Program-made: the position numbers and the translations under genes
The notes under the pieces: model-generated
Told to the model about the DNA's origin: nothing
Database searches by the model: none
The model's input: only the letters and a program-made list of their open reading frames with translations
UHGV virus genome: UHGV-0185920
DNA length: 10,525 nt
Origin: a virus
Direction: 5' to 3' (one strand)
Part shown: in pieces, positions 156 to 7,311 of the stretch
Layout: each line of letters starts with the position of its first letter
How positions within the stretch are numbered: the stretch's first letter is position 1

Positions 156-2888
156 TTAATTTGCAAGCTTATTTTCCAGTTCTTCAATCCTCTTTATAAT
201 ATTTTTCTGACGTATACCTAATGCAGCAATCATTAGATACTGTAATTCATCATTTCTGAATGCATAGCGTTCTCCTGCTTCATGCGTAATAGTTATAGCC
301 TCACGAACAAGGTTACCTTCATCATCATAAACAGCTGGATCTGTATCTGTATATGCATCCCATCTGTCATAGCAGATCGCTCCGTATTTAAATGGATCAA
401 GTCCATTCTCTCTGAATATTTCCATTGCCCGTTGCACCGTAAGTCCGGCATGAAGTCTGGCATCAGCTCCCTTATTTTTTACACTATCAAGCCATTGATA
501 AAAACCAATTTCATCAACAAGAGCTAACCCAACCGCCTGCTCTTTATCGGAAAGAGTTCTGACTTCCGTTTTCTCTGTTGCATCAGATGTATTTATAGTT
601 GCAGTCCCTGCGTAGACCTGAGAAAAGCGGTTAACGGACCTTCCAAGTGATACCTGGTTATCAGTTGTTGGCCTTAATGTCGTCGTCGCCCATGTCGATG
701 TAGTATCTTTAGTCGCAGAAAATACTGTTACATTCCCCTGCTTAAGTCTGACGACACCTCCATCTGTAGAGGCAAGTATCAACTCACCAGCCGCAGATGG
801 ACAATCAGCAGCATGGATATCAATATAAGCACCACCCGCAGTATTCCCATCTTTAGAACGGAACTGCATACCTCGAAAGTTTGAGTCGAATACTGCTTTC
901 GTACTTACCCATGAATTATTGTCATGTCCGTAATCTGTATCAAACAGGTTAAGGTTATTTCCATAATTCAACTCGAGGGATTTGGTATACTCTCCAATGG
1001 CTTCGTCAAATATCGCAATAGTAAATGAACCGTGCTCACGGTTAAAGGCGATATCAGTTCCAGCATAATATTGATGCGCGGTTCCGGTATACGGATCGGA
1101 TTCTGCACCATGCACTGGATGGTTGCCAAGAATATCAGACAGGTTTGCTATTCCAAACAGATGCTTATTTCTGCGAGTATAATCACCTGATTTATATGTT
1201 GCGCCTGAATCCCATTCACCACTTGTCGCTGCAAGCGATGTTTTTAACCAATAAGACCTGTTTGTCGGAAGATTTCCCTTGTTATCACCAGTAACAATAC
1301 TTACCCAATTTTTACCACGATGGCTTACAACATCCCCTGCGCTTTTCCATACATCCATAGCACCACAGACAAGTTCATCACCTCTTATTGCCAGCCCTTC
1401 AGGCTCAAAGCTAACCGGAACTCCGATTTTAGAGTCAGAACCATTTAACTGAGTCTCTGTATAAAGTGATGCGGCAAGTGATACAGGAAATGAACGTATT
1501 AGCGTACCACCCATATCATAAATCTGTACTGTCCTTACGCATCTTGCAGGAACGCCACCCCAAATTGTGTAAATATATCTGCTATCTGATGTAATACCCT
1601 GAAGTGTTGCACCATACTGACCTTTACCACGGACAAGTGGAACAGGACCATTAATCGGTCTAACTTTCATTGGGTTAGAAGAAGATTCCACTTCTTTGCG
1701 ATCATATACGTATAAAAAGCGGCCAGTCCCAGCGTTTGATGTCGCAATTAATATGACATATCGCCCATCATTAGATACACAAATACTTGCCCGCTGCGCA
1801 AGGTTAATCAGATTATTATCACCCGGCTCACCAAATACTCGGTAATGAGTTATATCTTCAGCAGATGTTGATGCCCCTTTCCATTTTGTCTTTGAATACC
1901 CCTTCCCTCCTAGAGAGGAACCAGTCTCAGCAATTGTTGTTGTAAACAGATATAGTTCACCGTTCTCTATTGTGGCAGAAAGATCTGAACCGTGACCAAG
2001 AGGCAATGGCTCTGTAAATGTCACAACATAAAGAGTTGAACCATCGCTTGTATAGTGCCACTCACTGATCCTTGTGAGGGTGTCCGTTCCCCAGTTAGAA
2101 CCTCCAACCTGTTGAGTGATAAAAACCTTCTCAATACCTTCATGCCTTACACAAGCTATTCCCTGCAATGCATTTTGTGCATTCGCATATATAGTTGGCG
2201 CATTGATATCATCACCAAAATTCAGGGTCGCAAGTTTTCTTTGTCCAATGGAGAAACTTTGCATCGGCGGATTAACAGAAATGCGAACACCATTACTGAT
2301 TAGAACACCATCACCGGAGAAGCGTGAAATATCTATTTTCGATGCATCAACTATAAACTCACCAGAAGGCACATGAACCAAACCACTATTTCCTGCGCTA
2401 GATGCGGCGTCAAGAAAAGCCTGTGTTGAATCTCTATTCCCAGAGTCATCCGCCCCCCACCCGCGAACGTCTTTATCATCCCGCCATCGTGCAATCTGTA
2501 ATTCAGGGTATTTTTTAGCACCATCAGGATCTTCTAATTGCTGCCGTAACTGATCCGGGTCATACTTCAGCACATTCGGAAAATAGAACTGCTGCGTACC
2601 ATAAGCATCGTACACAGCCATAGAGTGTCCTTTCACAGTAACGAATTTGGCAATCTGTCCGTTATATACAGGATATCCAGCAGCATTGATAACGATTGGT
2701 TGCGAAACAGGAACGTGAGAACCATCTTCATTCTCTACATAAACCTGAATCTGGTTTTCAGGATTTACAGGGTCAGTGTCAATTTTACCGATATAAATTT
2801 TTCCATTAGCTACGGCTTTAAAAGAACGAGCCATAGTGAAGAGTTGAGAAGGCATCCCAATTACAACATTTGGAGTTATATCAGGCAT
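156..2888 (-). CDS. Tailspike protein: P22 gp9-like N-terminal head-binding domain, central receptor-binding/depolymerase domain of unknown specificity, C-terminal peptidase-S74-type intramolecular chaperone domain
   Basis: Minus-strand ORF 156..3041 in the track. From MPDITPNVV through [26 protein letters not shown] to LKYDPDQ the protein matches the P22 tailspike N-terminal domain as I recall it. Start chosen at ATG 2888 (AGGA 8 nt upstream); alternative ATG at 2897; the track Met at 3041 adds 48 residues with no homology. C-terminal SDATEK (Ser and Lys at i and i+5), HAGLTVQ and [10 protein letters not shown] resemble autocleaving tail-fibre chaperone domains. Confidence 0.9.
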
Positions 2889-3235
2889 ATTAGTCATCCT
2901 GTTTGAAAATTTAGATATTGAAGAAAACGGAATGACTGCAGACAAAGATGCAATTGTTTTGAAAAATAATCTTCTATTCACTTTAAAACTATGCAACATG
3001 AACAAAACAATTATTTTACAACAAGCAAGAATCTTGATCAACAGACATATGCTTTATGCGTTTAATGCGTCACTTAAAAATAACAAGTACTACTTTTATT
3101 CCTATCGTCCATGATTTTCATTTTCAAATATTATTAAATAACAATTCCTATTTATAATATCTGTCATTTAATTTGCTCCAGATACAAGGAATCGCTGCAG
3201 CGTGGCCGCAGTGATGCATTATTAATCAAATAAAG

Positions 3236-3313: not shown

Positions 3314-3565
3314 ATGGGAAGAGATGACCCGCAATTTAATCTGCGGCTACTTTACGAATTAAAGGAAAAACTAAAACAGCGAGCCAAATCCAATGGCCGC
3401 TCTCTTAATTCAGAATTAGTTCAGATAGTGACTGATGCTGTATCAAAGCCATCCAAAATTTCAGACTATCGAGACGATGCAGAACGCATCGCTGATGAGC
3501 AGTCCGAACTTGTTAGGAAGATGGTGTTTGATACGCTGAAGGATTTGTACAAAAAACCCACCTGA
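3314..3565 (+). CDS. mnt: Mnt repressor (P22 immI maintenance repressor, ribbon-helix-helix family)
   Basis: 83-aa ORF; GRDDPQFNLRL, NGRSLNSELVQIV and DAERIADEQSELVRKMVFDTLKDLYKK closely match P22 Mnt as I recall it, including the C-terminal tetramerisation region; GAGG 8 nt upstream of the ATG. Confidence 0.9.
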   Translation: MGRDDPQFNLRLLYELKEKLKQRAKSNGRSLNSELVQIVTDAVSKPSKISDYRDDAERIADEQSELVRKMVFDTLKDLYKKPT

Positions 3566-3583
3566 AGGTGGGTCCTATTTATT
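3551..3583. terminator. Bidirectional rho-independent terminator between convergent mnt and the lipoprotein gene
   Basis: 7-bp perfect stem ACCCACC (3556..3562) / GGTGGGT (3567..3573) with TGAA loop; A-run on the left (a U-run for the minus-strand transcript) and T-rich tract on the right. The mnt stop codon TGA at 3563..3565 lies in the loop. Confidence 0.6.
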
Positions 3584-4001
3584 AGTCTTGCTTTGTTGAT
3601 GGTATAAGAGATGCGTTTGCCTCTTTTGGCTTCAAGGTATACATCCCACCATTAAAAGGATCTACAGCAAGCCAACCAATTAACCCACCAAACACAAGGT
3701 TTCCACCAATATACCAGCCATTAGCATTGGCTTTGATTGGCAGGGTAACTGGTTCGTACCCATCCTTTTCCATAGTGATCTGGTAGCTCTTTTTGCCAAA
3801 ATAACTACCATCTGACTTGGCAAGAGTTACTCCTTGTGGGGTCTTACCTTGCGCAACAATCACGCCTGATTCGTCTTTTACCTTAAAGCTCGCACCGGAA
3901 GGATTGCTGTTCACTTGCACAAGCTGCGTTTCGTCACCAACAATAGTTGCGCACCCAGATAACAATATAGCGCCAGCAACGACGCCAATAATCCTCTTCA
4001 T
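3582..4001 (-). CDS. Putative lipoprotein with C-terminal glycine-rich (glycine-zipper-like) segment; function unknown
   Basis: ORF 3582..4013 in the track. Signal peptide with lipobox (MKRIIGVVAGAILLSGC) and glycine-rich GGNLVFGGLIGWLAVDPFNGG near the C-terminus. Start placed at ATG 4001 (MKR) rather than 4013; the 4001 versus 4013 choice is uncertain because neither has a strong RBS. Confidence 0.7.
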   Translation of the reverse strand: MKRIIGVVAGAILLSGCATIVGDETQLVQVNSNPSGASFKVKDESGVIVAQGKTPQGVTLAKSDGSYFGKKSYQITMEKDGYEPVTLPIKANANGWYIGGNLVFGGLIGWLAVDPFNGGMYTLKPKEANASLIPSTKQD

Positions 4002-4118
4002 ATCAATTTCCATATTTAAAAAACCGGAAACATCCTAATGACAAACCATTCAAATGTGAAGTAGGCAAAAGATGTTTACTTTTTTCATGGTATCCTGCTC
4101 AAAACTAAGGAGGTTGGC

Positions 4119-4508
4119 GTGAAGCAATTTCTTACTGCTATGTTCTTATTCATATCTTTTGGGGCTACAGCAGAGTGCTGGGTCGTTGGAGATATGCGCG
4201 GAATAAGCTATTCAGAACGAAATAATTTCCATCCGGAAGAAGATGGTTTTAGTGGAACATTCATCATTAAGACAAACGGTGAAGATGCCAGCATCACATA
4301 TTCTGGGACAGATGCGGGCGGCATGGCTTACAAAGCATTGTCTAAAAACTCCATCATAGGAATCGGCGCGAATGGCGAAACTCAACGCGTTATCGACTCA
4401 TGGGTAATACATCCTACTGGAACAGTTTTAATGTCAAAAACCATTTCCGGTTATAGAAATATGGATTCAACCAAAGCTTTTGTTGGAAAAGTAAAAAGAA
4501 AATGTTAG
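4119..4508 (+). CDS. Secreted (signal-peptide) protein of unknown function
   Basis: 129-aa ORF starting at GTG 4119 with a strong RBS (AAGGAGG 4107..4113, 5-nt spacer); N-terminal hydrophobic signal-like sequence MKQFLTAMFLFISFGATA followed by a soluble domain; I recognise no family. Confidence 0.7.
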   Translation: MKQFLTAMFLFISFGATAECWVVGDMRGISYSERNNFHPEEDGFSGTFIIKTNGEDASITYSGTDAGGMAYKALSKNSIIGIGANGETQRVIDSWVIHPTGTVLMSKTISGYRNMDSTKAFVGKVKRKC

Positions 4509-4599
4509 CGATTGAATCCAATTTCCCATACGTTACTGCTGTGTTGCCTCAGTAGCAAACAGCGGTCTGATGGCATTCGCAGCGTTATTTATCGCTCTT

Positions 4600-5646
4600 T
4601 CATAGGCTGGTGTTCAGAACGTTTACCGGAGTGGTATCAGCAAGAGAGGTGTTTACGTTAGCGTAAGCCTTCTCTTCTTTTGTCAGTGACGCGTCATCCA
4701 GTGCAATCGGTTTCGGCGTGATTTCGATGTGAGTACCATCGATCACACGGGTGATTGAGAAAGTCGCATCATCAGTTAGCACGTTCTTCGCCATCTGAGA
4801 CAGGAATTTCACACCAGTGAAACTGATTTTGTCGCCGCGCTTAAATCCGGTGGTGGAGGATACGGTCACCGTTGCAACACGGTTGTCGACGTTCTCTTTG
4901 TTACCATCGGTATCAAGGGTGTATGCCTGCGGCTTAAACTTCTGCGCACCAGAAACAGTTACACCAGTAGCGGTTGACTTGGTAACTGCCGGAAGTTTCG
5001 GTGAGCGAAGAATTTCATCAAAGCCAGCAATCTGACGCTGAATAGTACCGTTGCGATACGCTTCTTCAGGAACGCGACCGAAGATGTCACCATCTACCAG
5101 GTTGCGGCCTGCTTTGCGGTAATCGTCAGGGTTCAGGAAGTAACTGATGCCCATGTCGCGGTTGAGTTCGCGGGAGAACATCAGGCGCTCTGCATCAGAC
5201 ACAAAATCCCAGCCAGACAGGCCAGTAGATGGACCAATTGCGCGGGTATCGTGAACAACAAGTGAGCCCATTTCAGTTGCCTGTTTGGCAATTGCTGACT
5301 CAATGTTATTCGCCAGTTTTTTAGCGGATGCCTGGATGCGGCGACGGTAAGAACGCTCATCACGCAGGTCATCTGCACGAAGCTCGAAGAAATCGTTATC
5401 CGGATCGCCCATGTTGCATTTCACGGAGAGTTCCAGAATCCCAGTTGCGTTGCCAGTTAAATCCCAGCCAGTCTGGGTTGGCGCTTCCTGCTCAACAGGC
5501 ATCCACACGGTGTTGCTTGAACGCCGCATGGATTCTGCCGGAGGGGTGTATTTTGTCACTTTGGACGCCATTGGCGTCAGATTCTGGACGGTTTCGATGA
5601 TTTCATCCAGAGCATACGTGACCAGTTGACCTTCATTTAATGCCAT
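4600..5646 (-). CDS. Coat (major capsid) protein, P22 gp5-like, C-terminally truncated (348 aa versus about 430 aa for P22 coat as I recall)
   Basis: [83 protein letters not shown] and [10 protein letters not shown] match P22 coat; homology stops within a few codons of the stop at 4600. AAGGA RBS 8 nt upstream; the start overlaps the scaffold stop (TAATG). Could equally be annotated as a pseudogene. Confidence 0.85.
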
Positions 5647-6570: not shown

Positions 6571-7311
6571 TTATTGAGGTGTCTCGGCTACTCCGCCGGA
6601 GGGGATTTGAACTTGACGCATAAGATTCGCGAAATCCATGCGTTGTGAATGAGTCTGGTCTGCATCTTTAAGAAGCAGCTCAGCGTTAGCACGAGCATCT
6701 TTGCTGCGCTGTTGCTGGAATTGACCTACTAGCTTGAGGTACTCACGCAGTTCTGCCTGCTTGTCGAGGTCCATATTGTTGAAGATTTCTGCAATCTTCG
6801 CGGCGTTGAGTTGGTTTTGGGCTTCAACCTTGGCGGCTTCAACCTGAATCTGCGCCTGTTGGTTCTCTGCCTTGAGCAATTCAGCCTGACCTTGCAGAAG
6901 GATACCCTGCGCCTGAATTTGCTCTGCTGATGGCTGCTGCGGCTGCTGTTGAGCCTGCTGTACCATCTCCATCTCTTCAGGTGTTTCTGGTTTCTTCAGC
7001 CCCATCATCACCAGTTGCTTGTTCGCGTAACGCCCGGTAAGGTGAAACGCGACTTCAGCAGCACCAGTAAATGACTTACCAAGCTGGTTACCAGCCATAA
7101 AACATCGCTCTGGATAGTCATGCCCGGCGTCGATGAACTCACGCTGTTTGCTGTATGGCGTAAATTCATATACCGGAGAAACAGGAGAAGAGTTCTCGGT
7201 AAATATCTCGCTTGAGTCATCAATGCGATATCGGGCGCGTCCTGACGCTTCAACGATTTTATGGTGGATGGAACAGAGTGAAGAAGCCAGAAAATCGCTA
7301 ACCAGCAACAC
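6571..7311 (-). pseudogene. In-frame fusion remnant: large terminase N-proximal fragment (Walker A region, about 7027..7170) joined to portal protein C-terminal fragment (about 6571..7026)
   Basis: The upstream part contains [48 protein letters not shown], a large-terminase ATPase Walker A region. The downstream part is a Q/E/A-rich helical tail ([25 protein letters not shown] ... ETPQ) ending 13 nt before the scaffold start, where the portal C-terminus lies in P22. The first 47 track residues show no homology. Confidence 0.7.

Follow-up and report, generated by a model that had tools for sequence, protein, structure and literature searches.

SieA, an inner-membrane protein, is so far the sole characterized exclusion protein at the sieA locus of P22-like phages; in P22 this locus is the interval between gene 16 and mnt, which carries sieA and orf59a. 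SieA is polytopic and bears a cytoplasmic FxRYPxEAxxFNK motif, and the 85 bp upstream of the P22 gene suffice for complete exclusion from a single copy (PMC10883804). P22 is also excluded by a gene of phage 434. Salmonella lysogens of lambda-imm434 exclude P22 and those of hex mutants do not, the name hex standing for heterologous exclusion (PMC3564112), and this observation is credited to Susskind and Botstein 1980 (cited in PMC3564112). We analyzed a stretch of 10,525 nucleotides from the virus genome UHGV-0185920, here called the window, in which the sieA slot of a P22-like prophage holds two divergent genes, one encoding a signal-peptide protein (SP) that is related to Hex and the other encoding a lipoprotein (LP). 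The features of this interval are as follows.

4072..4118, plus strand: PsieA-type promoter, 5' untranslated region (5'UTR), and Shine-Dalgarno block (TGgTATCCT, then AAGGAGG at 4107-4113, then the GTG start)
4119..4508, plus strand: SP gene, signal-peptide protein of 129 amino acids (aa), Hex family
3582..4001, minus strand: LP gene, lipoprotein of 139 aa
4032..4060, minus strand: promoter-like site upstream of the LP gene (TTCACA, 17 nt, TAGGAT)
3556..3573: hairpin terminator of the convergent mnt and LP genes (7-bp stem ACCCACC/GGTGGGT)

Judged by its sequence, SP adds a divergent member to the Hex family, at a locus new to that family. Searches of phage genomes with tblastn gave full-length matches at approximately 27% identity in 434, Sf6 (gene 38), HK446, HK633, and Sf101, and the homology of SP to Hex was recovered by tblastn (E value of 3e-5 with 100% coverage), by BLASTP (E value of 1e-12), and by an hhalign comparison of the SP family profile with Hex (99.8%, E value of 1.8e-30). 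Both proteins match PHROG 2651, and the hex DNA printed in PMC3564112 encodes the open reading frame (ORF) to which SP is homologous. The two proteins are of the same size, with a signal peptide followed by E-C-W and a C-terminal FVGxVxGxC ending. SP thus shows the Hex family arrangement of a signal peptide followed by xCW and a C-terminal cysteine, which in Hex itself reads TSANS/ECW...GTCNQ. Where the two differ is in their genomic location. The 434-type Hex homologs always come immediately downstream of cI, the repressor gene, in the rexAB position of the PRM operon, whereas SP is found at the sieA slot and follows the PsieA block; this is a difference in position and not in homology, and each of the two positions is expected to be transcribed in a lysogen. 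The initial annotation of the window had recognized neither protein as a member of a characterized family, which remains the case for LP but not for SP. The exclusion of P22 by 434 hex and the sieA locus of P22-like phages, which are not linked in the searchable literature, are now connected through this family. Literature searches returned nothing on LP and, for Hex, nothing beyond PMC3564112.

Several smaller observations concern Hex itself. In 434 its annotation is "repressor protection protein," and the published 158-aa Hex ORF overlaps the 3' end of cI (434 hex, locus L023, positions 2429-2905). A scan of viral contigs with Hex found near-identical imm434-type copies only. In Escherichia phage Huey (PQ850609.1, positions 25928-26323) a Hex homolog carries the annotation "PagP lipid A acylation protein," probably a mislabel that arose from the fold, since small barrels resemble one another.

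The position of the two genes was established from intact P22-like prophages (e.g., NZ_CP104503), in which LP and SP sit between gene 16 and mnt. This context, together with a match to the P22 sieA promoter, bears out the earlier assignment of the pair to the sieA slot and its reading as prophage cargo rather than chromosomal flanking DNA. Positions 4072 to 4121 of the window are 94-96% identical to P22 PsieA, its 5'UTR, and the first sieA codon. The aligned block of approximately 47 bp (ATGTTTACTTTTTTCATGGTATCCTGCTCAAAACTAAGGAGGTTGGyGTG) stands upstream of P22 sieA, the hkcB-like gene 14 of epsilon34, an hkcB-like gene of E. coli H5, Emek orf129, and SP, the copies outside the window lying at positions 2501-2550 of locus L005 and at the equivalent sites of L003, L004, and L020. 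It therefore heads three unrelated genes (sieA, hkcB-like, and the Hex-like SP), and in each comparison the identity ends at the GTG. The start-codon end of this identity is a fixed recombination joint in different P22-like phages, and the presence of one promoter, ribosome-binding site (RBS), and GTG block before unrelated genes makes this a clean case of phage genomes swapping cassettes at one fixed junction. In the window, the GTG at 4119 begins 5 nt downstream of the AAGGAGG and in the alignment falls exactly on the start codon of P22 sieA; RefSeq places the start of SP at a later ATG (4140). Because it shares the PsieA block and the same GTG, SP appears to have taken the place of sieA as an alternative allele, and its expression is probably of the same kind, that is, in the lysogen and probably constitutive.

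SP and SieA are therefore alike in their slot (gene 16 to mnt/gene 9), orientation, promoter/RBS block, and GTG position, and both are directed to the envelope, but they have no sequence similarity. SP is not polytopic and lacks the FxRYPxEAxxFNK motif; unlike SieA, it has only a cleavable signal peptide, followed by what is predicted to be a soluble barrel. The other alleles of the slot also encode envelope proteins, namely, SieA, an hkcB-like protein with a single-pass transmembrane helix and a coiled coil, and a 161-aa lipoprotein. The last of these (PHROG 6067; locus L022, 3055-3540, plus strand) is an alternative cassette in the sieA position of an E. coli prophage. Another cassette in the same E. 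coli prophage interval encodes a 121-aa protein without an export signal (locus L021, 2152-2517, minus strand).

The N terminus of SP (MKQFLTAMFLFISFGATA, followed by ECW) has an AXA cleavage motif (ATA/ECW). The signal peptide occupies residues 1 to 18 and is the sole strongly hydrophobic stretch of the protein, leaving a mature part of 111 aa with Cys20 and Cys129. An AlphaFold2 (AF2) model with a predicted local distance difference test score (pLDDT) of 94.9 is an all-beta barrel of nine strands with the two cysteines on the first and last strands. Since the model is a small beta-barrel and the protein carries a signal peptide together with terminal cysteines that are conserved, SP is predicted to be periplasmic, and the barrel is probably stapled by a disulfide from the second mature residue to the C-terminal cysteine. 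The short mature protein ends in cysteine with variable extensions, has conserved cysteines, and shows no aromatic C-terminal signal. A word-based search, which reached close relatives only, found full-length homologs that were all 129 aa long, and an exhaustive HMMER search yielded 85 cluster representatives, nearly all of 120-150 aa. In an alignment of 74 members, C20 is invariant and C129 is present in at least 90%; the first cysteine falls at approximately position 20 to 23, and in most members the last lies 0 to 3 residues from the C terminus. The family also shares a hydrophobic N terminus, a conserved tryptophan, a C-terminal FVGxxxGxC, and often a second pair of cysteines. No family match was found in Pfam, NCBIfam, or PADLOC scans, a comparison of the family profile with the sequences of solved structures in the PDB returned nothing meaningful, and a fold search of a viral structure set returned nothing significant.

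Members of the SP family occupy three kinds of site at which transcription in a lysogen is to be expected: the PsieA slot (the window and Emek), the PRM-cI operon (434 and Sf6), and the mnt operon of Salmonella P22-like prophages, where the homolog directly follows a Rap1a-domain gene and has a different signal peptide but a conserved mature part. The Rap1a protein is itself secreted (111 aa) and is encoded on the same strand between mnt and the SP homolog (loci L015-L019, 4650-4985). Rap1a is a type VI secretion system (T6SS) immunity family, and the match scored 55 bits against a cutoff of 27.7; this Salmonella prophage immunity-region operon appears to carry an orphan T6SS immunity gene.

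LP, which has the same coding sequence in RefSeq, starts with MKRIIGVVAGAILLSGC and has the form of a bacterial lipoprotein (a lipobox of the type [LVI][ASTVI][GAS]C after a hydrophobic signal sequence), with LSGC at residues 14 to 17 and alanine at +2. The lipobox is kept in 59 of 62 homologs, and 58 of those 59 have alanine at +2. The promoter-like site upstream of LP was found by a consensus scan (9/12 matches) and is a pattern match only. Downstream, the hairpin at 3556-3573 is followed on the minus strand by a TTTTT run, and the epsilon34 record labels the corresponding site a Rho-independent terminator. The gene coordinates, orientations, export signals, AAGGAGG RBS, and LP-side terminator of the initial annotation were thus all found. 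LP belongs to PHROG 6823 (E value of 6e-86), a highly conserved family for which we found 728 matches and in which the most conserved part (NGWYIGGNxVFGGLIGWLxVDPFNGGMYTL) includes a glycine-rich hydrophobic stretch at approximately residues 96 to 113. The description of a glycine-zipper-like segment holds in so far as this short stretch has a single GxxxG; no glycine-zipper family in Pfam matched LP at E values up to 1. A match to Pfam PEGA (PF08308) scored 17.6 bits, below the gathering cutoff of 20.8, and PEGA matches were found in 16 of 62 family members (best E value, 0.0013). The AF2 model of LP (pLDDT of 78.5 overall) consists of a PEGA-like beta-sandwich (residues 25 to 93, >90), a low-confidence pair of short helices (residues 94 to 120, 51-66), and a confident C-terminal beta-hairpin that packs onto the sandwich, and on the basis of this model the hydrophobic segment is more likely a membrane-dipping hairpin than a transmembrane pass. 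Foldseek comparison with the PDB gave generic immunoglobulin-like sandwiches only, none with an E value of <0.001, and the LP family profile matched nothing meaningful among the sequences of solved structures.

The LP architecture of a lipid anchor and a beta-sandwich, with a glycine-rich hydrophobic hairpin between strands, resembles that of SlyB, an outer-membrane lipoprotein with a beta-sandwich and a glycine-zipper helical hairpin, though the LP hairpin is much shorter. A relationship to SlyB, whose sequence was confirmed against PDB 7ojf, was rejected (hhalign probability of 1%; SlyB not among the Foldseek PDB matches). Cor (phi80/N15/HK022) and Llp (T5) are, like LP, small prophage-encoded lipoproteins carried as cargo in the late-gene region. 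LP was not accepted as their relative either: the similarity is limited to the signal peptide and lipobox (NCBIfam Cor, E value of 0.19 over residues 1 to 30; PHROG 1119 over residues 1 to 20; both far below cutoffs), and the mature domain differs.

LP homologs are found at three different positions in phage late-gene regions. Besides the sieA slot, siphovirus prophages carry homologs with 68-78% identity as cargo: in E. coli ED1a-type and Proteus prophages the gene separates the tail chaperone genes from the tape measure gene, and in a Pseudescherichia prophage it separates tail genes I and J. In Enterobacter and Xenorhabdus, homologs are ordinary chromosomal genes, which fits the remark in the epsilon34 genome paper that gene 15 resembles numerous bacterial genes whose function is unknown (PMC2629481). 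As to housekeeping relatives, the LP family is therefore partly chromosomal, while Pfam and NCBIfam offered none for SP. The repeated uptake of a chromosomal envelope lipoprotein by unrelated phage types makes LP a candidate lysogenic-conversion factor. In the ED1a-type siphovirus prophage, tail genes M and L are also separated by a porin gene (387 aa; Pfam Porin_1/Porin_4; loci L010 and L012, 10261-11424), so that with the LP homolog there are two envelope-protein cargo genes in one tail cluster.

We give an even chance to the explanation that the window holds two moron cassettes, SP being a periplasmic exclusion protein in the sieA slot and LP a mobile envelope lipoprotein. Morons are non-essential cargo genes with their own expression signals. 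SP would replace sieA at the same GTG and be driven in the lysogen by the PsieA/Shine-Dalgarno block; it would be exported through its Sec signal peptide and fold as a small, soluble, disulfide-stapled beta-barrel. Its most likely role, suggested by homology and position, would be superinfection exclusion from the periplasm, directed at a periplasmic step of an incoming phage such as assembly of the DNA conduit formed by ejection proteins, or its function, or the penetration of the cell wall. SP might in this way do from the periplasm what SieA does in the inner membrane. LP would be sorted to the outer membrane (alanine at +2), with its sandwich held to the membrane by the glycine-rich hairpin. 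With its own promoter-like site and terminator, it would be independently mobile, captured from a chromosomal Enterobacterales family, and would most likely alter some envelope property of the lysogen. The initial proposal of an envelope-acting exclusion module is thus retained for SP, through its Hex homology and PsieA block, and not for LP, to which no function could be assigned. If SP excludes phages, the Hex type would be a second, periplasmic exclusion mechanism at the sieA locus. In practical terms the significance is modest. P1 Sim and T4 Sp are precedents for exclusion from the periplasm after adsorption. The comparison with SP is functional only, none of the tools having detected homology; Sim is also cited as an exclusion gene in PMC3564112.

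The initial annotation had treated the two genes as a possible functional pair, and it is the distribution of LP and SP that decides this question. The genes are adjacent and diverge from an intergenic region of 117 bp that is conserved with epsilon34 and E. coli H5, an arrangement that could be expected of a cooperating two-component envelope module (an exclusion or toxin/immunity pair). Among 5,426 complete E. coli genomes, with LP counted at ≥90% nucleotide identity, LP was found in 124 and SP in 147, and 45 had both genes, adjacent to each other. However, 79 genomes had LP without SP and 102 had SP without LP, so that the two are mostly apart, and the odds ratio for their association is 0.47-1.49 depending on the choice of denominator. 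The obligate co-occurrence that characterizes two-gene toxin/immunity or defense systems is therefore not seen. Breakpoints of partial matches fall in the LP-SP intergenic region, as in a mosaic. LP occurs without SP in phages epsilon34, Gally, and 720R6, and SP occurs without LP in Emek and ST-35; the partner of LP in epsilon34 is the hkcB-like gene, SP has other neighbors in Emek and the Salmonella prophages, and the LP homologs of siphovirus prophages and chromosomes are solitary. LP and SP assort independently and are two separate cassettes rather than a two-gene system. A cooperating pair is already contradicted by this distribution, and we regard it as highly improbable.

The published function of Hex offers a different account of SP. 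In the sole biochemical study of the protein, Hex was proposed to act in the cytoplasm by blocking the RecA-stimulated autocleavage of repressor (PMC3564112), and SP, as a Hex homolog, could likewise be a cytoplasmic stabilizer of lysogeny that protects the prophage repressor. Replacement of hex raises spontaneous induction approximately 30-fold in a recA-dependent manner, and a 61-residue fragment, sHex, acts in vitro as an inhibitor of 434 and P22 repressor cleavage (PMC3564112). One distant SP homolog also adjoins a gene for a umuD-like S24 peptidase, although on the opposite strand. The whole family, however, has a Sec-type signal peptide and the terminal cysteines typical of exported proteins. 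The repressor-cleavage proposal rests on sHex, which was made in the cytoplasm, and over-expressed full-length Hex was toxic and stopped growth (PMC3564112). sHex starts at Glu43 of the 158-aa ORF, precisely where the mature protein would begin once the predicted signal peptide (MIRIAALLSILLTTSANS, cleaved at ANS/ECW) is removed; the text of PMC3564112 makes no mention of a signal peptide, periplasm, or membrane. The start of sHex and the toxicity of full-length Hex fit export, the coincidence of the start being suggestive. In the window, moreover, SP lies at the sieA slot unlinked to a repressor gene, and RefSeq annotates none inside the prophage remnant. We consider it quite unlikely that SP acts in this way.

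Two further explanations leave the exclusion of phages aside. SP, LP, or both may guard the lysogen against envelope attack of non-phage origin, for example as orphan immunity proteins against T6SS effectors, colicins, or peptidoglycan hydrolases, or, for LP, by conferring serum or stress resistance. The Rap1a-domain gene directly before the Salmonella SP homolog and the chromosomal members of the LP family would suit such a role, and an SGxDAGG stretch in SP recalls the MliC motif. This stretch is deleted in most members of the SP family, no effector gene adjoins LP or SP at any locus examined, and the one known genetic phenotype of the family is phage exclusion (PMC3564112), all of which makes this protection unlikely. 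It might also be that LP and SP are neutral passengers without function in the lysogen, given that the prophage here is defective. We judge this very unlikely, as the ratios of nonsynonymous to synonymous substitution rates (dN/dS) are 0.0-0.08 for LP, indicating strong purifying selection, and 0.2-0.3 for SP compared with diverged alleles, which again indicates purifying selection; in addition, phages have taken up LP repeatedly, at differing positions, SP keeps its conserved expression block, and the 85 cluster representatives of the broad SP family keep the signal peptide and cysteines.

The explanation that SP is a periplasmic exclusion protein and LP a mobile envelope lipoprotein has several points to be weighed against it. 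SP is just 27% identical to Hex and occupies another locus, and the published cytoplasmic role of Hex counts against it because a periplasmic location would not explain that role, a poor fit with the export signals of the SP family. The signal-peptide and lipobox calls were made by sequence rules rather than by a dedicated predictor. The fold search with SP returned generic small barrels only and no known exclusion, immunity, or inhibitor protein, and neither LP nor SP had a PADLOC hit. Distant members of the SP family have non-phage, unrelated, and uninformative neighborhoods, including short metagenome contigs. LP, finally, may have a housekeeping function in the envelope that has nothing to do with phages, because its family is partly chromosomal.

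A broader and more doubtful proposal follows from placing SP and Hex in one family. It is possible that the proteins of the Hex family, 434 Hex included, are all periplasmic barrels, Sec-exported and disulfide-stapled, that keep P22-like phages from delivering their DNA, and that the RecA/repressor mechanism is secondary or arose artefactually because a fragment was expressed in the cytoplasm. Hex proteins would then be the soluble counterpart of the membrane protein SieA, and the sieA slot would be a plug-in site whose conserved promoter/RBS/GTG block drives whichever envelope-targeted exclusion protein recombines into it. We hold this only tentatively. The family-wide export signals are a concrete reason to reexamine the cytoplasmic mechanism of Hex.

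The LP and SP genes lie in a remnant with the following flanking features.

156-3041, minus strand: tailspike gene
3314..3565, plus strand: mnt repressor gene, left boundary of the interval (Pfam Arc, E value of 5e-20; Repressor_Mnt, E value of 2e-17)
4533..4615, minus strand: 3' remnant of gene 16 (ejection protein), last 26 codons, ending at a deletion joint
4606..5646, minus strand: truncated coat (gene 5) pseudogene, right boundary of the interval (Pfam P22_CoatProtein, positions 1-344 of 423)

The window matches, with 100% identity, the chromosome of E. coli TUM10008, where it forms a decayed P22-like prophage adjoining thrS, and its mnt gene has the same position as in P22 and epsilon34. 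Comparison with the intact prophage (locus L001) showed that the gene 16 remnant is colinear with it to approximately position 4618 and that the translation corresponds to the gp16 C terminus. The coat gene is cut at approximately residue 346 of 423 and is a pseudogene without its C terminus in RefSeq. The deletion has thus fused the last 26 codons of gene 16 to approximately codon 346 of the coat gene (4533-4618), with the loss of genes 4, 10, 26, 14, 7, and 20 and most of gene 16. Retention of the two genes in an otherwise gutted prophage had been offered as an argument for their function. The joint, however, is present in only 1 of the 5,426 genomes, that of TUM10008 itself, so the decay looks recent, and the survival of LP and SP therefore says little about selection and carries little weight. 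No RNA families were found in the window by Rfam. Past the coat gene lie the scaffold gene and then fragments of head and early genes. After the scaffold gene, a 246-aa ORF (6571-7311, minus strand), of which RefSeq annotates only part as a "terminase large subunit domain" protein, looks like a further deletion fusion of head-gene fragments and abuts early-region genes on the opposite strand (exonuclease and anti-RecBCD).

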